In this document: in pieces, positions 15,883-59,097 of the stretch
Layout: each line of letters opens with the position of its first letter
Numbering within the stretch: the stretch's first letter is position 1
Source: a virus
Taxonomy: Duplodnaviria > Caudoviricetes
Direction: 5' to 3' (one strand)
Virus record (IMG/VR): IMGVR_UViG_3300025829_000001
Coordinates: 1-63,704 of that record
DNA length: 63,704 bases
Position numbers and translations under genes: made by a program
Notes under the pieces: model-generated
What the model saw: the letters and a program-made list of their open reading frames with translations, nothing else
What the model was told of the DNA's origin: nothing
The model's database searches: none

Positions 15883-15883
15883 G

Positions 15884-22674: not shown

Positions 22675-22711
22675 GCCGTGCCTGTTTAGCGTCCGCACAG
22701 CTCATGACGTT
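22675..22711 (-). ncRNA. Putative cis-regulatory H-type pseudoknot, copy 2 (upstream of SSB)
   Basis: CGTC/GACG stem, a CTAAAC linker, and loop GCTGTGC pairing with GCACGGC just before AAGGAG. Confidence 0.6.
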
Positions 22712-26631: not shown

Positions 26632-26926
26632 AATACTTATTCATCGGACTGTGCATCAGCGTGGTTTGGGCCTTGGTCGTTGTATATGCCGGAGCTGCAT
26701 GATGAGCTACACCGACTGGAGCAGTATCCTGCTGTTCGCCGCCCTTTTCCTGTCCATTTACCTGATATGGAGTGTAAAACATGGACACTAACAAAATCAT
26801 TTTGAACTGGATAAACTTTTGCGGTCTGAAGCCTGCCGCCGTGCTGGCTCATAACGCAGGCATCGAGTTCGAGCATTTCTACTTGGTAGCGTTTGGGCGG
26901 TATCCGAGATGATTTGATTAGGAGAT

Positions 26927-27181
26927 ATGGAAATGAAAAAAGTCACCAAACTGGATTGTTGCGGTTGCCAGAATAATTTCTACAACGGTAACAACGCATA
27001 TGGCATCAAAGAATGTTGGTCATTCAAGACGGCTACGCTTGTTAAGCGCCTACAAATTCATGTTGACCAAGCGCCTCCTTATTTGCACGTCAAGCCTGAG
27101 ATGGTGCCGAATTGTAAGCGTGTCGAACGATATGTGATGGTTAAGCCTGAAAATATCACGAAACAGGGATTTTGGGCATGA
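26927..27181 (+). CDS. Cys-rich hypothetical protein
   Basis: AGGAG RBS; CCGCQNNFYN motif. Confidence 0.68.
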   Translation: MEMKKVTKLDCCGCQNNFYNGNNAYGIKECWSFKTATLVKRLQIHVDQAPPYLHVKPEMVPNCKRVERYVMVKPENITKQGFWA

Positions 27182-27337
27182 ACACCCCAGACCACGAACA
27201 GGCCATAACTGATGCCAAGGAATGGCTTAGGAAATATGAAGCCGGAGAATTTACCTCTGAGGAAATGAGCAAGATGTGGATTGATATTCACGAATCCAAC
27301 AAAGCTAACGGGTTTAGTAACGACTAAGGAGATCAGC

Positions 27338-27622
27338 ATGATAACGATTGAAGGCTGGATTTACGGCCAAAAAGATTGGGACGGTACTTATTGGTACACC
27401 TTTTTTAGTGGTAGTGGGTTTGATATGCCTAGTTACTTCAAAGTTTGTCCTTTCGTCATCAATGCAGAATTACCGGCAAATCACGATAACTATTCCGCAC
27501 AGCTTGAAACTCTGAAAGCCAACAAGCAGCGCGTACTGGCTGAGAATGAAATGCGCGAGCAAAAGGCCGAGGAGTTTATTCAGCAGCACCTAGCGATAGA
27601 AAACAAGATGGAGGCTGCATGA
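27338..27622 (+). CDS. Hypothetical protein
   Basis: AAGGAG RBS before ATG 27338; C-terminal coiled coil. Confidence 0.65.
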   Translation: MITIEGWIYGQKDWDGTYWYTFFSGSGFDMPSYFKVCPFVINAELPANHDNYSAQLETLKANKQRVLAENEMREQKAEEFIQQHLAIENKMEAA

Positions 27623-27816
27623 GTACTGTATCTAAAGAAATTGCTGATCGCATTATTGCTGGCGAATATCCAACAGATCATGCAGTAAAGATTGTTGAAT
27701 ATGACAATAACTGGAATGGCGTTGGCTACGGCGTGATATTCCGTGGAGGGGATCCGGATACCTATGAAGAAAGTGATTTTGTCCACAACCCTCGCGTGTA
27801 TTGGATTGCGCCATGA
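27619..27816 (+). CDS. Hypothetical protein
   Basis: GGAGG RBS; ATGA overlaps with neighbours. Confidence 0.65.
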   Translation: MSTVSKEIADRIIAGEYPTDHAVKIVEYDNNWNGVGYGVIFRGGDPDTYEESDFVHNPRVYWIAP

Positions 27817-28034
27817 ACAAGCCACTCATAGAACGTTCCGGAGACCGGCGCAAGCTCTGCGAAATCCCCGATGTAGCCGCGTTCAGGATTAAACAACTTG
27901 AGCGCCAGCGGGATGAGCTTCTGGCAGCTTTGAGAGAGGCAATGGGATGGAATTGGCTGGATGATGATATGCCAGCAGATGTTAGTGGAGAGTTTGAATC
28001 ACTCATCGCCAGAATCGAGGCCGGCCATGATTGA
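27813..28034 (+). CDS. Hypothetical coiled-coil protein
   Basis: QRDELLAAL motif, common in small phage proteins. Confidence 0.6.
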   Translation: MNKPLIERSGDRRKLCEIPDVAAFRIKQLERQRDELLAALREAMGWNWLDDDMPADVSGEFESLIARIEAGHD

Positions 28035-28274
28035 CTACAAACCAAAATCTCAGTACCAGCCCGGATATTTGGCTGGGGTCATTATCGGAGCGCTCTTTGT
28101 TGCCGCGCTATGGTTCTTCGTCTCTGCGAAAGGATTCTAAATGTTAAACACCACACAAGTACAAGCCCTTATCGCACAGCACGAACAGAATCTACTGGTC
28201 GAGAAGTACGCCCGTATCGTTGCTTATTTCCAAAGGTATCCGCTGCGTCCGGTAATCAGGCGGGCGAAGGCAAA

Positions 28275-29282
28275 ATGATCCGCGTTCTCATTCCCGACAT
28301 GCCCAACCACGTCGACCTGCTGCCCTACCTGCGACGCATGGACGAGAGCCGGGTCTACGTCAACCATGGGCCGCTGGTGCAGGAGCTGGAAGCACGGTTG
28401 GAACAGATCACCGGCGTGCCCTGCGTCACGGTTTCGAGCGGCACAATCGCGTTGGAGCTGGCGCTTCAGGCGACAGAGGAGAATATGGTCTATGTGCCAG
28501 CGCTTACCTTTAGCGCTACAGGGTTGGCTGCGCAACGCCTTGGTTATGGTGTTGTGCTGTTTGACGTAAACTCTGATACCTGGCAACTTAAGCCGGGCGA
28601 CATTCGCTTGAGCGATTGGAACAGGGGCGTGGTCATGCCTGTCGCTGCTTTTGGTTGTCCAGTGGACATCGACCAGTGGGAAGGATTCGGATTTGAGATG
28701 CCGGTCATCATCGACGCCGCCGGAGCCTTCCCAGCGCAGTCTGTCAGCAAGGATCCGAACATCACCACGTGCTTCTCGCTGCATGCGACCAAGTTCATCG
28801 GCTGCGGCGAGGGAGGCTTTGTGGCCAGCAACAACCCGGAGCTTATCGCCAAGGTGCGCGACCTGTCCATGTTCGGCGAAGACGGCACCAATGCCAAAAT
28901 GAGCGAGTATCACGCGGCTGTCGCGCTGGCTAGTCTGGATCGGATGGGCGAAAAGCATAAACGAACGCATCATGTTGCACAATGGTACAGGGACAGCTTA
29001 GATAGTTGGGCAGATGTTTCTTGTCAGTCAACCATGCTGAATATCCTGCTGCCGCTGCCAGCTGCCGAAGTAATCCCAAAGATGTTAGCAGCTGGCATCG
29101 AAACCAAGCAATGGTATCGCCCGTACCTGGACGAACGTACTGAGTTTGGTGCGTATCAGTATGGACGCTTACCCGTAACCGATCACCTGCGCACCCATCT
29201 CTTGGGCTTGCCGTTCCATAATTTCTTGACGCAGCAAGACGTCACGCATGTCTGCGATACCTTGAGGAGCATTTTGAAATGA
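28275..29282 (+). CDS. DegT/DnrJ/EryC1/StrS sugar aminotransferase, VioA-like
   Basis: YVNHGP, SSGTIAL, IDAAGA, SLHATK..GEGG (PLP lysine) and NAKMSE motifs. Confidence 0.93.
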   Translation: MIRVLIPDMPNHVDLLPYLRRMDESRVYVNHGPLVQELEARLEQITGVPCVTVSSGTIALELALQATEENMVYVPALTFSATGLAAQRLGYGVVLFDVNSDTWQLKPGDIRLSDWNRGVVMPVAAFGCPVDIDQWEGFGFEMPVIIDAAGAFPAQSVSKDPNITTCFSLHATKFIGCGEGGFVASNNPELIAKVRDLSMFGEDGTNAKMSEYHAAVALASLDRMGEKHKRTHHVAQWYRDSLDSWADVSCQSTMLNILLPLPAAEVIPKMLAAGIETKQWYRPYLDERTEFGAYQYGRLPVTDHLRTHLLGLPFHNFLTQQDVTHVCDTLRSILK

Positions 29283-29451
29283 ATAACGCGATGCGGGAAG
29301 CGTTTAATAAAAGGTGGAAAAGGAATGTTGAGGTTCCAAAACTTCCTTGTGACGAGCCGATTTTGAATAAAATGAAAGTTGAATTCGAAGCTGGCTGGCA
29401 AGCAGCCCTAGCATATCAATCCGATCGGGCTGAGTTAAATCGGAGTAAACT

Positions 29452-30468
29452 TTGAAACTCCTCGTGACCGGCTGCTGCGGCTTCATCGGCAGCCACTTCG
29501 TAAAGCACGCCATCAAGCTTGGACATGAGGTGATCGGGATTGATTTATTGACCTATGCCGGACGAAGTAAAAACATACCCGAACTTAATCGAGGCTTGCT
29601 GGATGGCGGTCGGCTGTTGGTAGGAGATATATGCGACGCAGAATTTGTGCATGCTGTAGTGGACTGGCATCAGCCAGACGCCGTAATCCATCTCGCTGCT
29701 GAATCGCACGTCGCCCGCAGTATCGAAAGTCGCGACGAGTTCCTGCGCACCAACGTCATGGGCACCAACACGCTGCTGGAAGCGTGCTTAAAATACTGGC
29801 GTGGTGGCATACCGCTGGAAATAGGCGGTGAGTTTCCTGTAGTCAGCCAGTTCCGTTTCCTTTACGTCTCCACCGATGAGGTCTACGGCTCGTTGCAACC
29901 GAACGAACCGCCTTGGACGGAGCTATCACCCTACGCCCCGAACAACGCCTACGCCGCCAGCAAGGCCGCTGGCGATCACCTCGTGCGTGCCTATCACAAG
30001 ACCTACGGCCTGCCGACCATCATCACCCACAGCGCCAACAACTACGGCACCCGGCAGCACCCCGAGAAACTGATCCCAACATTGATCCGGCAACTGATGC
30101 ATAATGAATCAATGACGCTGCATGGCGACGGCATGAACATCCGCGATTGGCTGCATGTCTCTGACCACTGCCGTGGGTTGATGGCCGCGTTGACCTACGG
30201 CCGTCCAGGCACGGTTTACAATTTTGGCGGGGAGTGCGAGCGCACCAACCTGCGGATTGCCACGACAATAGCCCGCGTTATGAGTAAATCGGCAAATATC
30301 GAGATGATGCTCGACCGCGCCGGTAACGATGCCCGCTACGCCACCAACAACAGCCATGTGCGGCAAGCGCTAGGTTGGGAGCCTGGGCCATCCATCGAGC
30401 ATCGCATCGCGGATGTCGTGCAGTGGTACATCAATAATCCGGATTATGGAGATGAGTATGGCAGCTAA
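29452..30468 (+). CDS. rmlB: dTDP-glucose 4,6-dehydratase
   Basis: VTGCCGFIGS, AAESHV, STDEVYG, YAASK, HPEKLIP and RDWLHV motifs. Confidence 0.95.
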   Translation: MKLLVTGCCGFIGSHFVKHAIKLGHEVIGIDLLTYAGRSKNIPELNRGLLDGGRLLVGDICDAEFVHAVVDWHQPDAVIHLAAESHVARSIESRDEFLRTNVMGTNTLLEACLKYWRGGIPLEIGGEFPVVSQFRFLYVSTDEVYGSLQPNEPPWTELSPYAPNNAYAASKAAGDHLVRAYHKTYGLPTIITHSANNYGTRQHPEKLIPTLIRQLMHNESMTLHGDGMNIRDWLHVSDHCRGLMAALTYGRPGTVYNFGGECERTNLRIATTIARVMSKSANIEMMLDRAGNDARYATNNSHVRQALGWEPGPSIEHRIADVVQWYINNPDYGDEYGS

Positions 30469-30763
30469 ATATCGTAAAAAACCAATTGTAATTGAAGCAT
30501 ATAAATTCAATCCGGCTGAAAAGGCTGAATATATCATCATTTTGGAGCATGCAGATGGCGGCACTGGAATTGACAATAAATGGGGGATAGCAACTCTTGA
30601 AGGTTTGATGGAGGTCAGATTGGGTGATTGGGTGATTACTGGTGTTAAGGGTGAGCACTATCCTTGCAAGTCTGATATTTTCGAGATGACATATGAGTTG
30701 GCAGCTGAATCGAATCCGCCTCCCCCGCCAGATACAGGCGGCATCACGAAGAAAGGGTTGTGA
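30458..30763 (+). CDS. Small phage protein (KYRKKP..IEA family)
   Basis: KYRKKPIVIEA, TLEG.M and GEHYPCK.DIF motifs. Confidence 0.8.
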   Translation: MAAKYRKKPIVIEAYKFNPAEKAEYIIILEHADGGTGIDNKWGIATLEGLMEVRLGDWVITGVKGEHYPCKSDIFEMTYELAAESNPPPPPDTGGITKKGL

Positions 30764-32595
30764 TGAAGAAAAAACCACATCCAGTAACGCAAATCACAAA
30801 CGTGCAGCTCGAGACCTTCGAGAAGGCAGTCTATTCGCACGACTATGAGGAAGCTAGCCGGTTGCTGCTGGATAGTCTGCGTAAGCTGCGGGCTGGCGCA
30901 GAATTTATCGGCTATCCCGTTGATCCAAACACCAAAGCAATCCTCTATACCCGCTTCTGTGCCGCGATGTTCGCGTTGCTGGCTGATCCAGATTACCGTT
31001 TGTCGATAGAGGGCTACAGTGCGCTGGCGGCGGAGCACGCCATCATTGACCTGCTGTTTCGCTGCTCGGCGTTCGGCAACAGTGACCACATGATGCCGCA
31101 GATGAGCGCTGATCCGACTGAGAAGGATCAGACCAAGATCAAGTTCAAGGACAGTGCTGGGTTGGCCAAGTACATGCTGACCTACTCCATGCGTTCGGGT
31201 TTCCTGATGAACTTTGAGGAAGCTTTCAAGAAAAGCCCGCAGGTGATGTTCCCGCTGTACGTGGGTTTCTTGACCAGCATGGTGGCGTTGTCGCAGACCG
31301 CGCACGACCGGCGCGAGTTGCTGCTCGGCATGGCGCATGTGTTTAAAGACATCTCACTCACTGATCAGCTCATCTCCTCCATGTCGGATGCTTACATGTA
31401 CTGCTCCTACGGGCAACGCCCAGACAAGCATGATTTCAAAGGGTTGGTGCATGACCTCTATTCAAAGATGATGCATGCTAACGGGTTCACCGTTCCGAAG
31501 TTTGCCAAACGGACAAAAGGTAAGCCTGTGATCCTGGTGCCGGTTGAATGGTTCACGTCGTTGCATGCGATGTATCGCTGCTACGCACCGGTCATCCGGC
31601 AGCTCCGCACCAAGTTCAAGGTCATCGGGATGGGACGCCCGCACGCTATTGACAAGGATTCCAAGAAGGAGTTCGACGGTTGGATTGAGGTGCCCGAAGA
31701 GAACATCGCCTTGAGCACGCTGGTCGAACAGATCAAGCAGGTGAAGCCCGACATTATCTATTACCCCTCGCTGGGCATGGACTTGATCTGGGTAGCACTG
31801 GCCTCAGTGCGCCTGGCACCGATTCAGATGATGACGCTGGGGCACCCTGCTTCCAGCCATTCCATGGAGATTGATTATGTGGTGTGTGAAGAAGGCGACA
31901 TTGGCGATGTATCACTATTCACGGAACAAATTATTGCGTTGCCACACGGCGCATTATTCCGCTTCGTCATGCGCCTGGATGCGGATCTACCCGAACCAAC
32001 CGTTCAGGAGAATCCAGAAGTCATCAAAATCGCCATACCCGCGATGGTGCTTAAGCTCAACGCCACGTTCCTTGCGACCCTTAAAGAGATTCAGGAAAAA
32101 TCACAACGTCCGGTGGAGTTTCACTTCTGGCCGAACATGATCACCACCGTGCTGCTGCAAACCGCTCGTGAAATCCGCGAATACTTGCCAGGAGCCTTTA
32201 CCTATGAACGTAACCAGTATAACGATTACATCCGCCAGGTGCAGAAGTGCCACATTCAGCTCGGCACATTCCCGTTCGGCGGCACCAACAGCAACGTGGA
32301 CGCTATGCTGCTCGGTATGCCGATGGTGGTGATGGAAGGCGCGGAGCCGCATGCCACCTGCGACGCCAAGATGCTGCGCCGTGCGGGCATGCCGGAATGG
32401 CTGATCGCGCATGACCGCGATGAATACGTCGAGGCTGCCGTGCGGCTGATTGAGAACGATGACGAGCGGGTATGTTTGAGTCATTACCTGATCGATGAGG
32501 CCGACATCAAGGGCAAGTTCCTGAGTGCTCCGCCGGACGCGTTGAAGACCGCTTTTGTTGATGCTGTGTGGAAGCTGTATGAGGAGGCACGATGA
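30760..32595 (+). CDS. HMW1C/NGT-like cytoplasmic protein N-glycosyltransferase (GT41)
   Basis: About 611 aa with no TPR repeats. Motifs DAYMYCSY, HAMYR, YPSLGMD, RLAPIQ..LGHPA, LKLN and FPFGGTN match in order the conserved segments of Pasteurellaceae HMW1C/NGT. Confidence 0.9.
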   Translation: MMKKKPHPVTQITNVQLETFEKAVYSHDYEEASRLLLDSLRKLRAGAEFIGYPVDPNTKAILYTRFCAAMFALLADPDYRLSIEGYSALAAEHAIIDLLFRCSAFGNSDHMMPQMSADPTEKDQTKIKFKDSAGLAKYMLTYSMRSGFLMNFEEAFKKSPQVMFPLYVGFLTSMVALSQTAHDRRELLLGMAHVFKDISLTDQLISSMSDAYMYCSYGQRPDKHDFKGLVHDLYSKMMHANGFTVPKFAKRTKGKPVILVPVEWFTSLHAMYRCYAPVIRQLRTKFKVIGMGRPHAIDKDSKKEFDGWIEVPEENIALSTLVEQIKQVKPDIIYYPSLGMDLIWVALASVRLAPIQMMTLGHPASSHSMEIDYVVCEEGDIGDVSLFTEQIIALPHGALFRFVMRLDADLPEPTVQENPEVIKIAIPAMVLKLNATFLATLKEIQEKSQRPVEFHFWPNMITTVLLQTAREIREYLPGAFTYERNQYNDYIRQVQKCHIQLGTFPFGGTNSNVDAMLLGMPMVVMEGAEPHATCDAKMLRRAGMPEWLIAHDRDEYVEAAVRLIENDDERVCLSHYLIDEADIKGKFLSAPPDALKTAFVDAVWKLYEEAR

Positions 32596-32695
32596 AAAGA
32601 ATAAACCAATTGATACGGGATTCGGTTCGTATGTACTTTGCTCCGCTTGTTGAAACATTCAAAGCGTTACGCAAATGGATCAGCAGGAGTTGGAA

Positions 32696-33370
32696 ATGAG
32701 TAAGCCACTCATCATCTTCGGCACGGGCAGCATGGCACGGGTACTGCATTCTTTCGTGCGGCACCAATACAAGGTAGTTGCGTTTTGTTGCGATGATGAT
32801 TTTCTCGCGGATCAGTTCGCTGTTCCTGATATACCACAAATTCAGCACAGCACTCTAGTTTGGAAGTATAAACCAAAGGACCACTGCATGGCAATTGCCT
32901 GCGGTTATCACCAGATGAACCGCATACGTCAAGCGCGGTTCGAAGAATTTAAAAATGCAGGGTACGAGATGGTGGGCTACGTCAATTGTGTGATCTTTCC
33001 GCATCTCGGAATAGCCCTCGGAGTCGGAGTCGTGATCTACGACGGCGTCGCGCTTCACGCCGGAGCATCTGTCCGGGACAACGCGTTCATCAGCAGCAAT
33101 GTCTCTGTCGGGCATGACTGCGTGATCGGTGCGCATGCCTGGATCAATTCCGGCGTTACGTTGGGTGGTAACGTATGGGTTGGAGAACGGTGCGTCCTGG
33201 GGATGAACGCCACAATCGCGCAAGGCGTCAAACTTGGTGAAGCGACCTTCGTCGGGGCGAATACCTTGGTGACGCACGACACCTTGCCGAACAGCGTGAT
33301 TGTTTCCGAGCATGGACAGGTGATCGATATGGATAGCGAACGCTTTTTGAAGTTAACGGGGCAGCCATGA
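32696..33370 (+). CDS. Left-handed beta-helix sugar N/O-acyltransferase (NeuD/PglD/VioB-like)
   Basis: N-terminal IIFGTG Rossmann-like domain, hexapeptide repeats and VGHDC. Confidence 0.9.
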   Translation: MSKPLIIFGTGSMARVLHSFVRHQYKVVAFCCDDDFLADQFAVPDIPQIQHSTLVWKYKPKDHCMAIACGYHQMNRIRQARFEEFKNAGYEMVGYVNCVIFPHLGIALGVGVVIYDGVALHAGASVRDNAFISSNVSVGHDCVIGAHAWINSGVTLGGNVWVGERCVLGMNATIAQGVKLGEATFVGANTLVTHDTLPNSVIVSEHGQVIDMDSERFLKLTGQP

Positions 33371-33645
33371 ACGAAGAGCTAAATATTGGTGATTTGGTAG
33401 TTGTGGTGAAGAACATATCTAAATTCAATAAGCGGTATGACTGTTACATCGGATTGATAGATACGGTGCAGGCTAAACTAGGCAGACAAATCTGCTGGGA
33501 TGGTCCTAGAAGGCGGACACTAGGTGCTGTTTACATACTAGTTTCTGTGTCTAACGATCTCTGTTTTGCGCGTGAAGAGCTGAAAAAGATTAAGCCCCTA
33601 AAAGAAAAACAAGAACAAACTACCGAACTTTTGGAGGTTGCATGA
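33367..33645 (+). CDS. Small hypothetical protein inside the sugar operon
   Basis: ATGA overlap with the upstream gene; AT-rich. Confidence 0.6.
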   Translation: MNEELNIGDLVVVVKNISKFNKRYDCYIGLIDTVQAKLGRQICWDGPRRRTLGAVYILVSVSNDLCFAREELKKIKPLKEKQEQTTELLEVA

Positions 33646-33769
33646 AAAAAGGAATGTGCGCACACTGGACACCACAGGGTTGCGCCCCTGCTGTGCTGTT
33701 CAGAGGGACGACGAAATTCTGGTTGTTCCATTCGGTCACGTGGCCGATACGGAAGATTATGGGACGGTT

Positions 33770-35155
33770 ATGAAAACCATCAGCGAATTGTTCTTTGAGC
33801 AAGCGCAGCGTCAGCCGCACAAAATCGCGCTGATCCTGGGTACCCGCACCATAACCTACGCTGGGTTGCTGGTGATGGTGGAGCAGCAGCGCGTCATCCT
33901 GCGTACGATCGGCTTTACGCGAGGCGATCACCTATTGACACAGCTCAAGAATGACATCGACTTCATCGTTATCCTGCTGGCTGCGGCTGACGCGGGACTG
34001 ACGGTGGTGCCCTTGAATCCTGCCATGCCCCGCGCTGCGGTAGAGAATATGGCGATAGCTACCGACAGCACCTATCTCATCAGCGAAGGGTTCGAGGAAA
34101 ACTCCCCGCGCTCCGGATTGAAATTTACCGGACAGCCAGATGACCTCTTCCTGCTGATCACCACCAGCGGCTCGACAGGCGATCCAAAGCCGATCATGCT
34201 GAAGCAAGCGACGAAACTGCGGAGGGTTATCGCGCTGATTGAACTGTACGAGATCACCGAGGACGATATAACGCTAATCAGCACGCCGATGTACCACTCG
34301 ATGGGCATGCGCGTCGCGCTGGCGAGCCTACTGACCGGAGGCACCTTGGTGCTGATGAAAGGGTGGTCAGTTGGCGAATGGATCCGCTTGGTGGCGCAGC
34401 ATCGAGTGACCTTTGCTGTTCCTGTGGCTTCGCAGATCAAGCAAATCGCGCTATCTACTTTGACCATAAAATACAACCTAGTTTCATTACGCTGTTTGGT
34501 ATTTTCATCGGCAGCATTGGAAGCTAACATCAAGCAATTTATGCGGGCACAGATAGGTTGCCCCCTCCACGAATGCTATGGCACCACGGAGGTCGCGATC
34601 GTGACTAGCGGTAGTTCAGACCATGCTGATTATGGTGTTGCCCCTGCCGCTTCTTGTGGGCTTTCAACCCTTGGCGTTGGCGTTGCCACAAATGACGAAG
34701 GCGAAATTCTGGTCTCTACATATTTGCTTTTTGACGGTTACTACAATCTACCAGAGTTGACTGCTGCTACTATGGAATACGGATTTTTCAAAACAGGAGA
34801 TCTTGGTCGGCTAGACCACCTTGGAAACTTATTCTATCTCGGGCGCATCAAGGAACTGATCAACGTTGGCGGCACCAAGGTCTATCCGCTGGACGTCGAG
34901 GCCGTGCTGAATCAGCACCCGGACATCGAGGAGTGTGCTGCCTTCCCGCAGGTAGACGAAACGCTGGGCGAGGCGGTCGCGATAGCGGTGGTCGCCAAGG
35001 AGGGGTTGCTGTTGGACCTGCGTAGTCTTCAGAAGTTCTGCCTGCCGCACCTGACTGACGAGCAACTACCCCGCGCCATGCATCAGGTGCTGGCGCTGCC
35101 TAAGACGGATTCGGGAAAGCTTCAACGCGTTAAACTACAGGAGATGTTTAAATGA
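33770..35155 (+). CDS. ANL-superfamily adenylating enzyme (acyl-CoA / acyl-ACP ligase)
   Basis: TTSGSTGDPK, YGTTE, FKTGDLG, GR.KELI and PKT.SGK motifs. Confidence 0.93.
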   Translation: MKTISELFFEQAQRQPHKIALILGTRTITYAGLLVMVEQQRVILRTIGFTRGDHLLTQLKNDIDFIVILLAAADAGLTVVPLNPAMPRAAVENMAIATDSTYLISEGFEENSPRSGLKFTGQPDDLFLLITTSGSTGDPKPIMLKQATKLRRVIALIELYEITEDDITLISTPMYHSMGMRVALASLLTGGTLVLMKGWSVGEWIRLVAQHRVTFAVPVASQIKQIALSTLTIKYNLVSLRCLVFSSAALEANIKQFMRAQIGCPLHECYGTTEVAIVTSGSSDHADYGVAPAASCGLSTLGVGVATNDEGEILVSTYLLFDGYYNLPELTAATMEYGFFKTGDLGRLDHLGNLFYLGRIKELINVGGTKVYPLDVEAVLNQHPDIEECAAFPQVDETLGEAVAIAVVAKEGLLLDLRSLQKFCLPHLTDEQLPRAMHQVLALPKTDSGKLQRVKLQEMFK

Positions 35156-36285
35156 CTCCGTTGAAACTCGGCTTCATCGGCGGAGGCATCAACAGCGCCG
35201 TAGGTCGGGCGCACTACTCCGCTTGCCGCATGGATGGCCGGTTCGAGGTGGTGGCTGGGTGCTTTTCGCGAGACAAAGCTAACAACGTCGCAACAGGCAA
35301 GGTGTTTAATGCATACGTTTTTGATAAAGTGGAATGGATGCTTGAAATGCGTAGTTTGATAGATGCAGTTGTCGTACTCACACCTACGCCGTCACACTTT
35401 GAAATTGTCCGCGATTGCCTGATGACTGGCGTCCCTGTGATCTGCGAGAAGGCACTGACTGCAACCTCAAAACAAGCAGCGGATTTGATTGAGTTTCAAT
35501 GGGAAAAACGATATTCTGTTCCGGGTGATACTAGCGCAAGATTTCTCGCCGTGACGTACAACTACACCGGCTACCCGATGGTGCGCGAACTGCGTGATAT
35601 TGTACAGACCGGAGCACTCGGCAAGATCATCAGCATCCAAGCCGAGATGCCGCAGGAAGGCTATCTGCGCATGGACGCTCATCCGCAAAACTGGCGATTA
35701 GAGGATGGTCGGATACCTGGCGTGCACCTTGACCTTGGCACCCATCTGCATCACATGATCTACTTTTTGACGGGGCAGCACCCAAAAGCGGTATTAGCGC
35801 ATCAGCAGAAGAGAAGCGAATTCGGGGTGGTCGATGAGGTGAATTGCCTGGCTGAGTATGAAGGATTCAATGCTAATCTGTGGTTTGGCAAAACGGCTCT
35901 TGGCCATCGCAATGGCCTACGCATCAGGATATACGGCACACAAGGATTAGCAGAGTGGCATCAGATGAACCCGGAGGATTTGCAACGAGCGATGCCTAGT
36001 GGCAATCGCTTTACTGAGGATCGGTCATCAATCGGCGTACGCATCGCCAACCATCAGCGCTACCAACGCTTCAAGGCAGGACACCCCCAAGGCTGGCTAG
36101 AGGCGTTAGCTAATTTATATACTGATCTTGCTGATACGTTAGAACTGCATAAATCTGGCATTAGCATCGTGGAATCGTCTCAGAGAGGAACTATACCTGA
36201 ATTGTACGGCGCCGAAGTCGCTCACGCAGGACTTGTGATGATGGAGAATATGGTTAAATCAGCGAAGGAGCGGAGATGGGTCTGA
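35152..36285 (+). CDS. Gfo/Idh/MocA-family oxidoreductase
   Basis: LGFIGGG, TPTPSH, ICEKAL and DLGTH motifs. Confidence 0.92.
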   Translation: MTPLKLGFIGGGINSAVGRAHYSACRMDGRFEVVAGCFSRDKANNVATGKVFNAYVFDKVEWMLEMRSLIDAVVVLTPTPSHFEIVRDCLMTGVPVICEKALTATSKQAADLIEFQWEKRYSVPGDTSARFLAVTYNYTGYPMVRELRDIVQTGALGKIISIQAEMPQEGYLRMDAHPQNWRLEDGRIPGVHLDLGTHLHHMIYFLTGQHPKAVLAHQQKRSEFGVVDEVNCLAEYEGFNANLWFGKTALGHRNGLRIRIYGTQGLAEWHQMNPEDLQRAMPSGNRFTEDRSSIGVRIANHQRYQRFKAGHPQGWLEALANLYTDLADTLELHKSGISIVESSQRGTIPELYGAEVAHAGLVMMENMVKSAKERRWV

Positions 36286-36503
36286 TCCGCGTCTTCCTGT
36301 TGAGTCGGCTTGGGCTGCCTGATTCTGTGCTAGACAGTTACGACTACCGCGCTGGTGGGGACGTGGACTCCATCGAGTTCGTGCGGTTCATCTTGGAAAT
36401 TGAAAAAGATTTCGGTGTTGCTCTGACTGATGCGGATATCGAGTCGCCTGGAGTCAGCACCATCGGTGGATTGGTTGCTATTATTGAAAGGTTAACAGCA
36501 TGA
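36276..36503 (+). CDS. Acyl carrier protein
   Basis: 75-aa acidic protein with the VDSIEFV phosphopantetheine Ser motif and IEKDFGV. Confidence 0.85.
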   Translation: MGLIRVFLLSRLGLPDSVLDSYDYRAGGDVDSIEFVRFILEIEKDFGVALTDADIESPGVSTIGGLVAIIERLTA

Positions 36504-38713
36504 AATTTTCCATCATCATCCCAGCGTATAACGCTGCTGAAACGATCGAAACTTGCCTGCGCAGCTGCGCCTTTGAACCGGACACCGAGGTCGTTGTCTC
36601 GGTAGAGGACAACTGTACGGACGGCACCTGGGACGTTATCCAGGCATTAAGCTTTCCTTCTGTTACTCATATGATGGAGCGTTGGCCAAACCACGAACGC
36701 AAATACCAACCTCATGGCCCAGGCGTTATGCGCAATGCTGCGTTGAACGTGGCCAGAGGCGACTGGATCATCTTCTTGGACGCTGACGATCAGCTGGCTC
36801 CTGGTGCCTTGCAGAAGTTGAGCGATTTCATCAACGCACATCCGGACGTTGACACCATCGGCTACGACTGGGCGTGGGCGCACGACCCGACCGTCAATCA
36901 GCGCAAGGACGGCAAGTATCTGTCACTGAAAAAGAACGCGATGCTGAAGGAATATCTTAGTCTGCACATGGATGGTAGCGTGATCTTTACGGCGATACGG
37001 AACGAGTTTCTTCGTTTTCGCGGCGGGTTGCACGAAGATGTGCCTTTTCTGTTCAACGTGTATCAATTGGCACATAAGGTTGCATATCTGCCTGAAATTC
37101 TTTATTACAAGACAAATTGGCCTGATTCAATCGTCAATACTATTTCACAAGCGCATATCGATGGTTTTATCGCCGCTTGGGGAGAAATAGGCCGTCACGT
37201 TCAGGGAACAGATTTATGGCAGGACTACGAGATCGGGATCATCGGGGTAGTCGCGACGCGGGTGCGAGAGATTTACCGTAAGGCTGAGAATAAAAATTTG
37301 TTGTATCAGCACTTTTTCAATGTTCTGCCTGTCGACTGGAAACGCATCTGTGCTGAAAGCACGCTCGACACTCAATACGCAAAAATCGCCAAGCTATTCG
37401 CCAATGGCAATCCAGCGATAAATTTGGTCAGCGGTGTTGATGTTACCTTATTCAAAAAGACCTGGAGCTGCGTCGATCTGCAAGGCAGCCTGTTCCTGGC
37501 GCCAGGAGAGGTGAGGACATGCTGTAAACGGTTTTTTGTAGACTGTGAGATCAGGGGTGACGTGAAGTTGGTGGACGCGGAGCACGTCTCTGTCGAGAAC
37601 ATTCTGGCAGCCAAGCAGGAGTTGATCGACGGCATCAACAAGGGCGAGCCAACTCCCTGTTCCGGATGTCCATTCATGGAATTTAAGGAATGGGAACCTG
37701 TCTCGCCGCTCAAGATCAAATACCTCTCGTTGGAACACCATTCGGTGTGCAACATGCGCTGCAGTTACTGCGATGATACATACTACGGCGGGAAGCAGGC
37801 GGAGTATGACGTCACTACGTTAATAAATGAACTGCTGAACGACGGTGCTGACATGAAGCCTATCTGGGATGGCAAGAAACAGCTAAGTCACACCAACCTG
37901 CTTGGTGCGTTAGAGGGCTGTAGGACCATCGTTTGGGGCGGAGGTGAGCCAACGGTAGGCAAAGACTTTGAAAAGCTCGCTACGGCGCTTAAAATAGCGT
38001 TACCGCTGGTGAAGCAGCGCATCCTCACCAACGCTTTGAAGTATTCTCCACTAGTCCAGAAGCTTTTGAATGATGATACGGCAACGATCGTCACTTCCGT
38101 CGATGCGGGCACGCAGGAGACCTTCACCAAGGTGCGCGGCATGGGCAAGTTGGAAACTGTGCTGAAGAATCTTCAAAGTTATGCGTATGACAACCCACAG
38201 GCTGTGACCATCAAATACATCCTGACCGAGGACAATTATGCTCGCGCAGAGATTGAAGCTTACGTTGATTTGATTGAAGAATACCAGCTTACGAGGTGCA
38301 ATTTCCAGATCAGTTGTGATTTCAAGCAATCTGTGGCCACCGTTGGGCAGGCCAGAGCTGCATTGCGCCTACATTACGGGTTAAGACTTTATTGCAAGGT
38401 CATCTTCTTTGACGATCTGCTGATGCAGCGCTTGGTTGAAACGGACACCATAAGCATGTCCGGCATCGAATCGCCGGATGACTACCCTGACGGCATTGTG
38501 CTGTTCGGCACGGGCGCGATGACCGACTGGATGCTGGAGCATTCGATGTTTTTGACGCATGTCAAGATCGTGGCGCGTGAACACGTTCTATTCATTGGCA
38601 TTCAAGAACTGCCCGTGCTGATCACAGGCTCGCAGAGTTATCCGGAGACCTACCGTCGAGCGCTGGCGATGGGTGTGCCAGAAGAATTGATCATTCGAGG
38701 AGTAGTGTTATGA
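36500..38713 (+). CDS. GT2 glycosyltransferase fused to a radical SAM domain
   Basis: N-terminal SIIIPAYN, RN.AL..ARGDW, FLDADD and HED; later CNMRCSYC, GGGEPT, TNA and SVDAG; additional Cys cluster (CVD..TCC..CSGC). Confidence 0.9.
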   Translation: MKFSIIIPAYNAAETIETCLRSCAFEPDTEVVVSVEDNCTDGTWDVIQALSFPSVTHMMERWPNHERKYQPHGPGVMRNAALNVARGDWIIFLDADDQLAPGALQKLSDFINAHPDVDTIGYDWAWAHDPTVNQRKDGKYLSLKKNAMLKEYLSLHMDGSVIFTAIRNEFLRFRGGLHEDVPFLFNVYQLAHKVAYLPEILYYKTNWPDSIVNTISQAHIDGFIAAWGEIGRHVQGTDLWQDYEIGIIGVVATRVREIYRKAENKNLLYQHFFNVLPVDWKRICAESTLDTQYAKIAKLFANGNPAINLVSGVDVTLFKKTWSCVDLQGSLFLAPGEVRTCCKRFFVDCEIRGDVKLVDAEHVSVENILAAKQELIDGINKGEPTPCSGCPFMEFKEWEPVSPLKIKYLSLEHHSVCNMRCSYCDDTYYGGKQAEYDVTTLINELLNDGADMKPIWDGKKQLSHTNLLGALEGCRTIVWGGGEPTVGKDFEKLATALKIALPLVKQRILTNALKYSPLVQKLLNDDTATIVTSVDAGTQETFTKVRGMGKLETVLKNLQSYAYDNPQAVTIKYILTEDNYARAEIEAYVDLIEEYQLTRCNFQISCDFKQSVATVGQARAALRLHYGLRLYCKVIFFDDLLMQRLVETDTISMSGIESPDDYPDGIVLFGTGAMTDWMLEHSMFLTHVKIVAREHVLFIGIQELPVLITGSQSYPETYRRALAMGVPEELIIRGVVL

Positions 38714-39708
38714 CCACGCTGATATTTCCCGCCGTCAATCAGGCCGCTGTGGAGTACATAGAAGCAGCCGAAGAACGTGGCGAAGACATCATCTGCGCAT
38801 CGTCAGACAATCGGCTGAACACGTGGCGGTTGTCCGCTATTCACAACAAAGAGTTTGCTAACGATTTTATCGTGTTTAGAGAGCAGTATGACATCACGCA
38901 TATTTTCTGTCCCGTCGCCAGCGTCCATTCATTTATGCAAAAGTTCATCGCTGATTACGGACTGGACATCCAACTCATCGGCAAGTCGCCCATCCAGCAG
39001 GAACTCGACCGGCACAAAGCGCTGATGAAACGCGCAGCGTTGCTCGCACCAACGGCTAAGCTGCCCGTGATCGAGGTCGCTAGCATTCTGCGCCAGGCGT
39101 TTAACATCTATGGAGAATCGAACGATGAGAAGTTGGCAGCGATGATGGGCATCTTCGCAGACATGCCAAATGGGGACGTGGTGGAGATCGGGTGTCTTGC
39201 TGGGCGGTCGGCGTTTGTGCTGATGTGGCTGGCTGGCCGGTATAGCATCGGCGCACAACTAACAGTCGATCCGTGGTCGGCGGCGGAAGGCGCACAAAAA
39301 GATTCGCCTCCGCTGCTGACAGAAATGTCGAACGCGTGGGACTGGGACGCCTTGGCGGAGATTTTCTATGTCAACACGTTCTGTTTTATGCGTCATGCCC
39401 ACTTACGTTTGGCGTCAGAAGACGCATACGATCGATACTTAACTTCACCGATGCTTTCGCATATTCAATTTGCCAAGAGCATCGCGGTCATCCACATCGA
39501 CGGCAATCATGACTACGCCAGCGTCAAGCAAGATTGTGATCTGTGGTTGACACGAATGGCGCCGGGCGGTTGGCTGATACTGGACGACTACGTGTGGGTG
39601 CACGGCGACGGGCCATGCCGGGCAGGGGATGAGTTGCTGCTGGAAAAAGCCGACAGCATCGCGCAGCACTTCGAGTGCGGCAAGGCGCTGTTCGTGCAGT
39701 TTAAATAG
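38710..39708 (+). CDS. Class I SAM-dependent O-methyltransferase (Methyltransf_24-like)
   Basis: VVEIGCLAGRS, HIDGNHDY and GGWLILDDY motifs. Confidence 0.88.
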   Translation: MTTLIFPAVNQAAVEYIEAAEERGEDIICASSDNRLNTWRLSAIHNKEFANDFIVFREQYDITHIFCPVASVHSFMQKFIADYGLDIQLIGKSPIQQELDRHKALMKRAALLAPTAKLPVIEVASILRQAFNIYGESNDEKLAAMMGIFADMPNGDVVEIGCLAGRSAFVLMWLAGRYSIGAQLTVDPWSAAEGAQKDSPPLLTEMSNAWDWDALAEIFYVNTFCFMRHAHLRLASEDAYDRYLTSPMLSHIQFAKSIAVIHIDGNHDYASVKQDCDLWLTRMAPGGWLILDDYVWVHGDGPCRAGDELLLEKADSIAQHFECGKALFVQFK

Positions 39709-39717
39709 GAGATCGAT

Positions 39718-40125
39718 ATGACTGACTTATGCGACAGACTACTTCAAGCAAAGATTGCAGAGCTTGAGCGCGAGAGGGATGAGTTATTGGCTGCCGCAGA
39801 GGCAAGGATACAGGAGCCTGGAAGTTGGATATGTTGGTTAATTGAACGCAACTCGATGTTTGGTGTTGAATGGTTCGCTGGTGAGTGTGGATGGGTTAAA
39901 GAGGCAATTAACGCAATAAAGTTTCCAGACAAAGAAACTGCTATATGGGTGCATACCAAATTTTATTGGTTAAGAGAAAATCCTAGTTTTCCTTATATTC
40001 TCCAAGGTGGCGGAGATTGGGAATATACCCACACAATAACAGAGCATATGTTCATTTCTACCACCAACAACGACGCACCCCTTAATCCTGCAATTCTTGA
40101 AATTGGAGTAAGAACCCATGAGTGA
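39718..40125 (+). CDS. Hypothetical protein
   Basis: AGGAG RBS; N-terminal coiled coil. Confidence 0.65.
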   Translation: MTDLCDRLLQAKIAELERERDELLAAAEARIQEPGSWICWLIERNSMFGVEWFAGECGWVKEAINAIKFPDKETAIWVHTKFYWLRENPSFPYILQGGGDWEYTHTITEHMFISTTNNDAPLNPAILEIGVRTHE

Positions 40126-40453
40126 TTACACAGAATTTCGTGGGAAATGCAAAGAATTATCAGAAGAGGCTATCGCACAAGACCCAACTCTCATATTGGT
40201 TAGAGGCCATTATCATTGTCCTGTTTGGGGTGAGCAGCCGCATTGGTGGACAGTTAAACCAGACGGAACGATATTTGACCCGTCTGCCAGACAATTTCCA
40301 TCGAAAGGAATTGGACGGTATATCGAGTTTGATGGGGGCCTCGCTTGCTCTAATTGTGGAAAAGAGATGAAAGAAACCGACGAAGTTGCTCAATTTGAAA
40401 GTAATTATGCTTTTTGCTCAACGCCATGTCATATGAGGTTTGTTGGATTATGA
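40118..40453 (+). CDS. Hypothetical Cys/His-rich protein
   Basis: HWW motif and a C-terminal CxxC...CxxxC zinc-binding pattern. Confidence 0.68.
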   Translation: MSDYTEFRGKCKELSEEAIAQDPTLILVRGHYHCPVWGEQPHWWTVKPDGTIFDPSARQFPSKGIGRYIEFDGGLACSNCGKEMKETDEVAQFESNYAFCSTPCHMRFVGL

Positions 40454-40674
40454 GAAATTTAAAAAGTTATACCCCACTAGCTTCTGCTGAATATGAAACA
40501 AAAATAGAAGTCTTAATGCAACAGCGTGACGAAGCCAACAGCGAAAATACTCGCCTGCGCCTGCGTGTCGAACAGCTGCGGGGTCTGTGCAAATCAGCCG
40601 TAGGTATGCTGAAGGACGATTACCCGATGATGGCCGAGGAAATATACGAGCAAATTGGAGATATGGAAATATGA
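40450..40674 (+). CDS. Hypothetical coiled-coil protein
   Basis: ATGA-coupled to neighbours. Confidence 0.55.
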   Translation: MRNLKSYTPLASAEYETKIEVLMQQRDEANSENTRLRLRVEQLRGLCKSAVGMLKDDYPMMAEEIYEQIGDMEI

Positions 40675-40931
40675 AACATGTACGAATATTTGAACTAGCT
40701 AAGGAAGCAGGGTTAGATACCTACAAGCAGGATGTCGCCATTGAGCGCTTCGCCCAAGCAGTCGCAGCCGAGTGTGTACCTAACCTCGCCGCGGAATGTA
40801 GTAAGGAATCTGAAAGGTTGAGGTATTGTTACGAAAGAGCAATGGCCTCCCTCATTGTCCCTATGATGACCCATGAAGAATGGATTATTGCTATTGATGC
40901 GGTCATAGACTGCGAAAGGAGTAAGCCATGA
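40671..40931 (+). CDS. Hypothetical protein
   Basis: ELAKEAG...IERFAQAV motif; GGAG RBS. Confidence 0.6.
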   Translation: MKHVRIFELAKEAGLDTYKQDVAIERFAQAVAAECVPNLAAECSKESERLRYCYERAMASLIVPMMTHEEWIIAIDAVIDCERSKP

Positions 40932-41164
40932 ATGATGTAATGTTTGAGCAGTGGTATGCAAAGACGTATGGGCTGGATTCTCCGCCACATCGTGAAAGCT
41001 GTAGAAACGCATGGAAATTCGCCCTGGCATATCAAGCCGAGCACGAGAAGAAGTTGGTGGAATTCACAATTTCCGAAACTCTAACCATCATCGGACAGAC
41101 AGACAAGCCTAACATTTCACCGGCTGCCATTATCGCTGCGTTTCACTTGTCAGCAATCAACTAA
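40928..41164 (+). CDS. Hypothetical protein
   Basis: AGGAG RBS; ATGA overlap. Confidence 0.6.
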   Translation: MNDVMFEQWYAKTYGLDSPPHRESCRNAWKFALAYQAEHEKKLVEFTISETLTIIGQTDKPNISPAAIIAAFHLSAIN

Positions 41165-41175
41165 GGAGCACCACC

Positions 41176-41646
41176 ATGTTTAAAACCAAAGTAATCTCAT
41201 TAATAATCTTGACGGCTTTCGCAGGCAGTGCAAATGCGACCGTAGTGCCTGCCGGATCTAATACCAACATGGTTACTGGAATTAGTATAAGCGAGACTAG
41301 CAGCCAGCAGCAGCAAAATGCTACGGTGAACAACGGTGGAAATTCACAAGCTGTTACTGTAGCAGCACCAGGATCGTATCGCCCGGCTGTTGATTCAGCT
41401 TATGCCCCGACGATTTTCCCAACAGCACCTTGTATGGGTTCATCGTCAATGGGCGTGTCTGGATCCTTGATCGGCCTTTCATTAGGCTCATCTTGGACAT
41501 CAGAAGAGTGCCTAATTCTTGAAACTGCTCGTGGCTTTGACCAAGCTGGCTATGTAGAAGACGGCTTGAACGTCCGCTGCCAAGCCAAGTATGCAAAGGT
41601 TGCACCTTCTTGCAAGGCTTTGCTACATAAAGAAGAAACTAAATGA
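41176..41646 (+). CDS. Exported protein with signal peptide and four cysteines
   Basis: MFKTKVISLIILTAFAGSANA signal peptide; AAGGAG RBS. Confidence 0.75.
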   Translation: MFKTKVISLIILTAFAGSANATVVPAGSNTNMVTGISISETSSQQQQNATVNNGGNSQAVTVAAPGSYRPAVDSAYAPTIFPTAPCMGSSSMGVSGSLIGLSLGSSWTSEECLILETARGFDQAGYVEDGLNVRCQAKYAKVAPSCKALLHKEETK

Positions 41647-57576: not shown

Positions 57577-59097
57577 CTAGCCATTTGCAATATTGTACAC
57601 GACGCCTGATGCCGGGGGAAAATAATTCTGCAACACACCGTCTTCATAGACACCGTACTGATACTTACGTGTGATCAATGGCCATTCGATCTGGTAGTAA
57701 TCACGACGCATACGCATCTGCAAGATGTTGGTCACGTTCGACAGCGGATAAGGCAGACGCTGTGTGGTGAACAAGATCGTGCCAGCTGGCATATTTGGAT
57801 GCAGGCGGATCTTAAGCTCCTGGGCTCCGTCCATGCCAAACTTGTTGAGGTACGTACGCACCATAATGCCACCACCGACCATGCCCTGATCAGCATTGAA
57901 CACGAAGCGCTGGGCTGCATTCGCTGCACCGGCCAGGATCTTCTTGCCGATGTTGTTCATCTCTTGCGAGCTTACCCACAGGGTATCAGGGCTGAGACGG
58001 TAGTTGTCCCAGAAGGACTTCAGTGCTGCATCAATTTCAACGATGCCACCCGCACCATCGCTGGTGAGAGGTGTGCCTGTGCCATTAACACCTGCTGGCA
58101 TCGCAGCTTGATAGCTGTTCAGTCCAGATTGCGAGGCAAAGGTCAGCAACCCGTCAAACGCCAGCGAGTTGCGAGACTTGTCCGCAACAACCAGCGCCTG
58201 GAAGTTCGCCACACCGCTGCCAGAAGCAGTACCGGTTGCATTGGCGGTTATTGATACGCTGTTGATGGTGGTGATTGCGCCTAGCGTCAAGTTGCCTGCG
58301 TTAGCGCCCCAGAACCAAGCGTAACCTGCCGCACCTGCTACTGCTGCAACCGTTGCGGAATACGAGCATACCGTGCCGGTATTGGCGTTGATGGTGTTGG
58401 CCTGTGCTGCAAAGTTACCTGTGCCGCCGTTGATGGTGTCAGTTGATGCGTCTGCGTTGGTACGGACGTAGGACTGGATGATGCCAGTGGTCATCGAGGA
58501 GTTGAGATAACCCTCGAAGGTCAGCGGCACAACAGCTACCCCGAAACCCGCGTTGCCGGTTAAGCCGCCGCCGGTATTGGCGTTGGTGATGGTTGGTGCT
58601 GCGGCTGTGGTCAGGGTGTACGAATTGTTGCCGCCCAGGATGACCTTTTCTTCCGCGATCATCATGGCACGCAGCAAACCTTCGACGGCCAGTGCCTTGA
58701 CGTCTTGGAAGTTCTCGGCAGCATAATCAGCTTCAAACGTCACTGAGTCTTCCAGGCCGAGACCCTTGTAAGCAGCGGTGTAATCTTGCGTGGTGCTGGT
58801 AATTACCCCGGAGCGGTTGCCGCCAGAGACGTAAGGCGAGCCGTTTAGCGCAGTATTGACGCCGGTGACTGCACGCCAGGCTGCTTGGATGCCTCCCTTA
58901 CCGCTTACGCGGGGGATTTCATTGCGAAGTGGGGTGATGACCGGATAAAGCTGCTTCGCAGGCGCTTCGAGGTCGTAGGCGGTAATGCCGGAAACGGCAG
59001 AACCGGATTGTGTCCAGGCCTTGGTTAGTTCAGTGTCAGGACTGCCTTGTGCTGCTTTGAGCAGAGCTAAAGTCTCTGCTGTGGTTTGATTACCCAT
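57577..59097 (-). CDS. Major capsid protein with a Thr/Asn/Ala-rich insertion domain
   Basis: 506 aa after the protease gene, strong RBS, followed by a terminator; YDLEAPAK.LYP, EEK.ILGG, FDGLL and IRLHP motifs. Confidence 0.88.
   Translation of the reverse strand: MGNQTTAETLALLKAAQGSPDTELTKAWTQSGSAVSGITAYDLEAPAKQLYPVITPLRNEIPRVSGKGGIQAAWRAVTGVNTALNGSPYVSGGNRSGVITSTTQDYTAAYKGLGLEDSVTFEADYAAENFQDVKALAVEGLLRAMMIAEEKVILGGNNSYTLTTAAAPTITNANTGGGLTGNAGFGVAVVPLTFEGYLNSSMTTGIIQSYVRTNADASTDTINGGTGNFAAQANTINANTGTVCSYSATVAAVAGAAGYAWFWGANAGNLTLGAITTINSVSITANATGTASGSGVANFQALVVADKSRNSLAFDGLLTFASQSGLNSYQAAMPAGVNGTGTPLTSDGAGGIVEIDAALKSFWDNYRLSPDTLWVSSQEMNNIGKKILAGAANAAQRFVFNADQGMVGGGIMVRTYLNKFGMDGAQELKIRLHPNMPAGTILFTTQRLPYPLSNVTNILQMRMRRDYYQIEWPLITRKYQYGVYEDGVLQNYFPPASGVVYNIANG

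Follow-up and report, generated by a model that had tools for sequence, protein, structure and literature searches.

An HMW1C-like glycosyltransferase in a tailed-phage amino-sugar operon: a candidate cytoplasmic protein-glycosylation cassette

A glycosylation operon in a complete phage genome

The IMG/VR virus record IMGVR_UViG_3300025829_000001, analysed here over its whole length of 63,704 bp (the window), carries direct terminal repeats of 127 bp and has its completeness rated at 100%; with its terminase, portal, capsid, tape measure and tail genes, it is the complete tailed-phage genome that the original prediction, made from the letters alone, had taken it to be. A plus-strand block (26314-41646), bounded on both sides by minus-strand blocks, carries an operon of tightly overlapping genes (28141-39708), in which an HMW1C-like protein glycosyltransferase of family GT41 is set among enzymes of a modified-sugar pathway (Table 1). 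All nine functions previously assigned to this operon were recovered in their places, on a single strand, by Pfam and NCBIfam searches.

The GT41 enzyme is built, over its full length, from an all-α N-terminal domain and a GT-B catalytic domain, with Pfam matches to HMW1C_N (residues 16-146) and Glyco_transf_41 (residues 489-568). It aligns from end to end with four solved protein N-glycosyltransferases (NGTs; 8p0o, 8p0q, 3q3e and 8j30; E 7e-83 to 2e-81), residues 14-601 corresponding to residues 6-611 of 8p0q, and a profile of its 25-member family matches NGTs at E ~1e-124. O-GlcNAc transferases (OGTs) and SPINDLY, by comparison, reach E values of only ~1e-5, so that the enzyme groups with the NGTs and not with OGT; an O-GlcNAc-type grouping, which had been named in advance as the outcome that would count against the prediction, is thus not what the search of solved structures returned (NGT E ~1e-83, OGT ~1e-5). 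The NCBIfam model NF049992 ("NGTferase") is matched at E 6.2e-105 over residues 16-601, with a score of 352.1 bits that does not reach the equivalog cut-off of 1000.

Active-site residues were equated by HMMER sequence alignment to the A. aphrophilus enzyme AaNGT, whose nucleotide, sugar and acceptor contacts are described in PMC10507012, and invariance was judged in the 25 family members. Contacts to the pyrophosphate, ribose and sugar are kept and invariant (AaNGT Lys440, Asn520, Asp524, His276, Arg280 and Gly369-His370, equivalent to K432, N510, D514, H269, R273 and G361-H362 of the phage enzyme), as is Asp215 (D210). Among the uracil contacts Tyr500 is kept (Y490), and His494 and Ser495 are replaced by R484, which is nearly invariant, and N485; further changes comprise Thr437 to M429, Ser277 to A270 and Gln468 to M460, and His214 falls at a gap. 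The acceptor side is likewise altered. In AaNGT, Arg177 and Asp215 read the +2 Ser/Thr of the N-X-S/T sequon, and mutation of Arg177 to Ala inactivates the enzyme (PMC10507012); in two HMMER alignments its place is taken by M175 of the phage enzyme and by Leu of the family profile, and an invariant R184 and a nearly invariant R185 follow 9-10 residues past the equivalent position. By predicted fold and catalytic core the enzyme is therefore HMW1C-like, with a nucleotide pocket and an acceptor reader that appear unlike those of the characterised enzymes using N-X-S/T and UDP-glucose. The N-X-S/T specificity that the original prediction had assumed is accordingly not assured; with Arg177 lost, the enzyme may not read this sequon at all, and tests that count sequons may have little bearing on it.

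Nine of the 12 gene junctions between 28141 and 40125, small open reading frames (ORFs) and the next downstream gene included, overlap by 1-23 bases, which is the signature of a co-translated operon. The G+C content of the operon (0.51-0.54) does not differ from that of the remaining genome, and a scan for promoters and terminators gave counts at or under shuffle expectation. Sequencing runs with matches number four, from three studies; two are labelled soil metagenome, all four are possibly the source of the record, and none of those listed is an RNA run. In a hydropathy scan the ORFs of the window showed three hydrophobic 19-residue segments at most; with no multi-pass membrane protein, a flippase, polymerase, GtrA/B or GT-C enzyme is absent and the pathway is cytoplasmic. 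This agrees with the earlier observation that Wzx/Wzy, GtrABC and membrane glycosyltransferases are missing, and with the underlying view of a soluble, protein-type cassette, free of lipid-carrier and flippase machinery, around a true HMW1C-like enzyme and a modified-sugar pathway.

Table 1. Genes of the operon and other features of the window that are discussed in the text
Feature	Position	Strand	Evidence or remark
45-codon ORF	28141..28278	+	Stop overlaps the aminotransferase start (ATGA); read from the sequence, junction table
DegT/DesI/VioA-like pyridoxal phosphate-dependent sugar aminotransferase	28275..29282	+	PF01041, E 7.9e-48
RmlB, dTDP-glucose 4,6-dehydratase	29452..30468	+	TIGR01181, E 1.3e-111, 372.7 bits, above the cut-off of 365.1
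Small ORF, ~105 aa (116 aa from the first ATG, 30413)	30446..30763	+	Stop overlaps the GT41 start
HMW1C-like GT41 protein glycosyltransferase	30760..32595	+	GTG 30760 or ATG 30763; Pfam HMW1C_N and Glyco_transf_41
NeuD/PglD/VioB-type left-handed β-helix sugar N-acyltransferase	32675..33370	+	Hexapep, E 1e-18; PglD_N
92-aa ORF	33367..33645	+	Overlaps both neighbours; no Pfam/NCBIfam match
AMP-forming acyl ligase	33638..35155	+	AMP-binding, E 2.8e-52; AMP-binding_C
GFO/IDH/MocA NAD(P) oxidoreductase	35152..36285	+	PF22725, PF01408, PF02894
Acyl carrier protein (ACP)	36276..36503	+	PP-binding, E 2.5e-6; NCBIfam ACP models match below their cut-offs
GT2-radical S-adenosylmethionine (SAM) fusion, 737 aa	36500..38713	+	Glycos_transf_2, residues 4-121; Radical_SAM, residues 412-559
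Methyltransf_24/TylF-like (sugar O-) methyltransferase	38710..39708	+	PF13578, E 3.8e-16; TylF, E 3.9e-4
Portal	4444-6066	-	
Terminase	6578-8110	-	
Major capsid protein, candidate acceptor (weak lead)	57577..59097	-	506 aa; 54% identity to Brevundimonas phage Polewnik/Strzyga proteins

The aminotransferase has its best NCBIfam match in TIGR04427 (DesI; 129 bits, far under the cut-off) and its best solved relatives in 3ju7 and 2po3. Its longest ORF begins at 28110, but the previously chosen start at 28275 is likely correct, having an in-frame ATG, an ATGA overlap and a length like that of the homologues (331-374 aa); its product is probably a dTDP-4-amino-4,6-dideoxyhexose. RmlB aligns through residues 2-331 with positions 1-316 of the 321 in TIGR01181, and the acyltransferase matches TIGR03570 (NeuD/PglB/VioB family) at E 2e-39 and 135 bits, short of the cut-off of 160.8. 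Many NCBIfam acyl-CoA ligase models match the AMP-forming ligase, every one under its cut-off, and this enzyme presumably loads an acid onto the ACP. The radical SAM motif CxxxCxxC of the fusion protein lies at residues 417-424, and its GT2 part resembles 5tz8/5tze, chondroitin synthase and PglI; five further cysteines (324, 341, 342, 387 and 390) and a C-terminal G-x-G (670-672), invariant in the family alignment, are hints of an auxiliary cluster and a further nucleotide-binding domain, in a region with no solved relative. Three small ORFs without family matches, at 28141, 30446 and 33367, had been overlooked; for the second, Pfam and NCBIfam gave no match and the related loci no homologue.

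Taken together, these genes may well constitute a soluble, cytoplasmic protein-glycosylation cassette of bacterial origin, since passed among phages, whose GT41 enzyme puts an acylated amino sugar directly on protein, a reading that we advance tentatively. Host dTDP-glucose would be converted by RmlB and the DegT/DesI-like aminotransferase into a dTDP-4-amino-4,6-dideoxyhexose; ligase, ACP and oxidoreductase would ready an unusual acyl group, which the PglD/VioB-type transferase would add to the sugar amine, and the TylF-like enzyme would methylate the sugar. The GT41 enzyme would then transfer the modified sugar directly to an Asn or Ser/Thr of protein produced in the infected cell, the likeliest acceptors being the phage's own virion proteins, and in the window's phage lineage the GT2-radical SAM protein would add or remodel a further residue.

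Phage and bacterial relatives of the cassette

Neither a megablast search with the operon against GenBank phages nor a tblastn search with the GT41 enzyme against 50,697 GenBank phage records found a match, and literature titles and abstracts on phages with HMW1C or NGT, or on HMW1C with flagellin, yielded no phage-borne or flagellar HMW1C-like enzyme; the original statement that no such system was described in a tailed phage thus holds within these searches. In IMG/VR, by comparison with GenBank, 22 loci encode a GT41 homologue, and many of the best of 407 protein matches lie on contigs of 56-68 kb. The cassette of the window recurs in four loci (L002-L005), with 66-72% identity in the GT41 enzyme and 36-61% in the other genes, which makes the former the best conserved gene of the cassette.

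Gene calls in related loci were made by a crude longest-ORF script, and trees by FastTree with midpoint roots. The capsid type of the window recurs in nine of the 12 carrier records tested (60-80% identity), the other three, complete phages G009, G010 and G012, having other capsids. In the capsid tree all 10 carriers fall into one clade, so that the gene was gained once in that lineage; more distant capsid relatives lack it in all 30 records tested, of which only three are at least 90% complete. When the gene content of carriers and non-carriers was compared, only divergent head genes differed, in a test for which crude ORF calling fails in high-GC genomes. The tree of 97 GT41 sequences unites the 23 viral copies in one clade (support 0.966), two contigs from metagenome-assembled genomes (MAGs) being counted as phage on account of tail genes (L025) or an arrangement shared with L007/L008 (L024), and places this clade as sister to seven loci from Betaproteobacteria-type MAGs (joint support 1.0). 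In G009 the GT41 gene is flanked, on the same strand, by the major head protein gene on one side and by the SU10-like adaptor and tail-fibre genes on the other.

Three short contigs binned in a single Legionellales MAG (L024, L228 and L254) carry close copies of the phage genes (76% identity for GT41, 56% for the GT2-radical SAM fusion). As these contigs are probably pieces of phage genomes, their assignment to the MAG does not reveal the host.

Both halves of the operon are matched in bacteria. The order aminotransferase, GT41, methyltransferase, acyltransferase, ligase, oxidoreductase, ACP is found in the complete genome of Halioxenophilus aromaticivorans (L056) and in two further loci (L051 and L090), and the order acyltransferase, ligase, oxidoreductase, ACP, GT2-radical SAM fusion, methyltransferase, exactly that of window positions 32675-39708, in L219, with near-identical orders in L220, L222, L227 and L230. 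The fusion is widespread in bacteria, its relatives being full-length at 36-41% identity, and the oxidoreductase is its most conserved companion there, mostly at 40-49% identity. A Pfam tally of 145 ORFs neighbouring GT41 genes counted 13 DegT aminotransferases, 12 hexapeptide transferases, five sulfotransferases and four AMP-ligases; no adhesin family figures among the 25 commonest neighbour families. Two bacterial modules are thus combined in the phage operon, and since bacteria have counterparts in the same order, phages did not put the cassette together from scratch.

The two bacterial modules also occur, separately, in flagellar gene clusters. In H. aromaticivorans the run (8456-16583) lies between flgL and fliC and follows flgG, H, I, J and K; the glycosylation island of P. 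aeruginosa PAK also sits between flgL and fliC (PMC3927599). Flagellar genes lie within 10 kb in eight of 78 bacterial GT41 loci searched with iterated hidden Markov models (HMMs), from Gammaproteobacteria, Planctomycetota and Gemmatimonadota, and in six of 38 bacterial loci of the GT2-radical SAM fusion, which in L241 directly follows flgL. A predicted flagellin glycosyltransferase, FlmQ, is on record for B. cenocepacia (PMC4462625). The bacterial HMW1C-like genes that accompany an amino-sugar pathway in flagellar clusters (L056, L051, L090 and L241) suggest an undescribed class of flagellin glycosyltransferases. FlmQ itself may be GT41-like, and its sugar may be an acylated viosamine.

In the bacterial loci nearest to the phage copies, a trypsin-like protease, a kinase and conserved ORFs of 717-825 aa had suggested a conflict system. 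That reading was rejected; the ORFs, almost devoid of Asn, Ser and Thr, seem to be the antisense strand of a conserved gene.

The flagellar setting of these homologues weighs against virion proteins as targets, since it suggests that the acceptor was ancestrally a surface protein of the host. It is accordingly conceivable, if unlikely, that the phage enzymes still modify flagellin or another surface appendage and so alter the cell surface during infection, for example to block competing phages that depend on flagella or pili: the homologous cassette of H. aromaticivorans stands among flagellar genes, the flagellar neighbourhoods of both modules span several phyla, and the pathway mirrors a flagellin viosamine island. 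Against this, the window and three of four complete relatives gave no match to integrase (PF00589) or resolvase (PF00239), a result that speaks against lysogenic conversion, and a virulent phage would gain little from new flagellin. Moreover, Flagellin_N has no match in five phage genomes, flagellar HMMs have none in the viral loci, the viral enzymes form a clade of their own that extends across phage types, and the G009 gene sits inside a structural module. On these grounds virion proteins are the most likely acceptors of the proposed cassette.

Donor sugar and acceptor

The recurrent partner of the GT41 gene is a DegT aminotransferase, found within 5 kb of it in 45 of the 78 loci from bacteria and in 12 of the 21 from viruses. 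In four complete relatives (G003, G004, G005 and G008), all of which keep the aminotransferase, there is no match to PF00535 (GT2) or PF00534 (GT4), whereas the window gives a GT2 match; GT41 is thus the sole recognisable glycosyltransferase of these phages and likely transfers the amino sugar. We infer the donor from this solitary position and from the altered base pocket, and for the same reasons prefer direct transfer of an amino sugar over priming with a hexose.

Sister phages point to a comparable acyl supply. In L009-L014 and L021 the aminotransferase and GT41 genes are accompanied by an ACP-sized small ORF, a ketoacyl-ACP synthase III (KAS III), a short-chain dehydrogenase/reductase (SDR) and often a Rieske oxygenase, and by no ligase or oxidoreductase; KAS III is found in L009, L011, L012, L014 and L021, and an SDR cluster in four of these five. 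These are the gene functions that supply the acyl group in the P. syringae viosamine island, where ACP, KAS III and a ketoreductase serve to make N-(3-hydroxybutanoyl)-2-O-methyl-viosamine for flagellin (PMC3927599).

Several observations weigh against an acylated amino sugar as the general donor. Complete phages G010 and G012 have the GT41 enzyme without any DegT gene, so that the amino sugar could be the donor in every case only with supply from the host; in G009 ~18 kb separate the DegT and GT41 genes; and both donor and linkage are read from gene context and a few aligned residues.

The mechanism of the original prediction, in which a canonical NGT transfers glucose from UDP-glucose to the Asn of virion N-X-S/T sequons and the GT2 enzyme extends this primer with the modified amino sugar, accommodates some of these facts. 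The enzyme is homologous to solved NGTs over its full length and keeps the phosphate, ribose and sugar contacts together with Asp215; the window does hold a second glycosyltransferase domain that could extend a primer; G010 and G012 carry the enzyme without an aminotransferase; and two capsid sequons mark the carrier clade, one of which had both its halves made by the change from S-E-V to N-L-T. Opposed to it are the loss of Arg177 (Met in the window, Leu in the profile), the exchange of His494 and Ser495, a score of 352 bits against a 1000-bit equivalog cut-off, the four complete relatives that retain the sugar pathway without GT2 or GT4, and the lack of any sequon excess. Hexose priming followed by GT2 extension is therefore improbable for this phage and unlikely as a general mechanism.

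As for the acceptor, the major capsid protein, which also shares 28% identity with the protein annotated as major capsid in Arthrobacter phage Mufasa8, offers a weak lead. Its N269-L-T, replacing S-E-V, is a sequon in nine of 10 carriers, in none of five well-covered non-carriers and in none of 59 distant relatives, and a second sequon specific to the carrier clade, N454-V-T456, has T456 in place of Gly. Both trace to one ancestor and hence to a single evolutionary event, and the threshold for clade-specific columns in the capsid is passed by one N-x-S/T column, the same number as for S-x-S/T.

Across the genome the sequon counts likewise tell against virion targeting through N-X-S/T. The 93 ORFs of the window contain 106 such motifs against a shuffle expectation of 106.7, and in 500 shuffles no protein was enriched beyond its composition, the highest scores being z 2.5 for a 117-aa ORF, 1.76 for the large tail protein and 1.35 for the capsid. 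Among 10 core proteins of five complete genomes, conserved columns number four for N-x-S/T, seven for the reverse motif and seven for D-x-S/T. Sequons are thus neither enriched nor preferentially conserved in virion proteins, the virion targeting of the original prediction is not shown by them, and no acceptor protein was identified. We nonetheless infer virion acceptors for the directly transferred amino sugar, from the phage setting described above.

An ORF of 1170 aa, running on the minus strand from 3200 down to 1 and then across the record ends (127-bp repeat removed), lies downstream of the portal gene and contains at least 16 copies of G-Q-G-S-Q at a spacing of 21 residues. It has no Pfam or PHROG match. 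As a conserved acceptor it was rejected, 11 related phage records containing no homologue.

A non-protein acceptor, such as phage DNA with hypermodified bases, lipopolysaccharide or capsule, or a small molecule, is very improbable. Support for it comes from a divergent gene resembling thymidylate synthase which, with a dCMP deaminase and a dUTPase, could feed base modification, and from the 32 of 38 bacterial GT2-radical SAM loci that have no flagellar genes within 10 kb. Conversely, all solved GT41 matches (NGT, OGT and SPINDLY) are protein glycosyltransferases, no flippase, polymerase or other multi-pass membrane protein is encoded, and no hydroxymethyl-pyrimidine kinase or similar gene appeared among the part of the ORFs scanned.

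The thymidylate-synthase-like gene (81 bits, PF00303) and the adjoining dCMP deaminase and dUTPase_2 genes occupy 12518-14465 of the minus strand; the product of the first may be a true ThyA or a hydroxymethylase, the latter of which would imply modified DNA. The minus strand also encodes a DNA polymerase, helicases, a primase, a MuF-like head protein, the tape measure protein and a tail protein of 1248 aa. Interspersed in its replication module are homing/HNH endonucleases at 25288-26085, 17211-17846 and 14443-14949 (two phrog_655, one NUMOD4 with HNH_3), and the replication block holds a Pam3 gp34-like protein at 21898-22698 (PF23977, E 5e-78).

Relation to known systems and significance

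The window enzyme shares its two-part build and its solubility with the HMW1C-like NGTs of CAZy family GT41 (H. influenzae HMW1C, A. pleuropneumoniae ApNGT and A. aphrophilus AaNGT), from which it differs in being phage-borne, in being set in an amino-sugar pathway, in scoring below the equivalog cut-off and in its changed residues. Apart from AaNGT, the characterised HMW1C-like NGTs use UDP-glucose or UDP-galactose. AaNGT itself uses UDP-glucose (PMC10507012).

With the viosamine-type flagellin islands of P. syringae pv. tabaci and P. aeruginosa PAK (PMC3927599), the cassette has in common a VioA-type aminotransferase, a VioB-type N-acyltransferase, an ACP-based acyl supply, a methyltransferase and a protein-directed transferase. 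The pathway to a dTDP-4-amino-4,6-dideoxyhexose of either C-4 configuration (RmlB, VioA-type and VioB-type enzymes) is present in the window. The acyl supply consists of ligase, ACP and GFO/IDH/MocA oxidoreductase instead of KAS III and ketoreductase acting on ACP; the transferase is HMW1C-like and set apart by family label from VioT/OrfN; and the GT2-radical SAM fusion is an addition. Unlike these islands, the phage cassette is accompanied by no flagellin and lies in no flagellar cluster, whereas its bacterial homologues L056, L051, L090 and L241 do. Known flagellin glycans are O-linked.

Freeman et al. 2023 are said to have found O-linked glycans on the capsid and tail tube of mycobacteriophage virions. 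As would be the case here, those systems employ phage-encoded glycosyltransferases, thought to be cytoplasmic, with the phage's own structural proteins as targets; they differ in enzyme families and in hosts. Mycobacteriophage virion glycosylation is not known to involve an encoded sugar-nucleotide pathway as large as this one. NGT-type enzymes, viosamine-type pathways and phage virion glycosylation are thus known kinds, and what is new is their combination, its carriage by a phage and the changed active-site residues.

A more specific form of the proposal would have the viral enzymes be a phage-adapted HMW1C-like clade, changed in both donor and acceptor reading, that transfers a dTDP-linked, N-acylated and methylated 4-amino-4,6-dideoxyhexose to capsid or tail proteins in the cytoplasm and so covers tailed phages of soil Proteobacteria with glycan that is wholly the product of phage-encoded enzymes, its bacterial cousins being an unrecognised class of flagellin glycosyltransferases; taken as a whole this is possible, although on the unlikely side.

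Soluble NGTs are reportedly used for protein glycosylation in the cytoplasm of E. coli, and a natural relative whose nucleotide pocket and +2 reader have both changed could extend the range of donors and sites open to glycoengineering. Flagellin glycosylation may be a further role of HMW1C-like enzymes, to judge from the bacterial genes in flagellar clusters. Should virion decoration be its role, the cassette would be without precedent among phage glycosylation systems both in its HMW1C/GT41-type transferase and in carrying a rare-sugar pathway of its own, which would bear on adsorption and on escape from capsid-sensing defences, proteases and antibodies.

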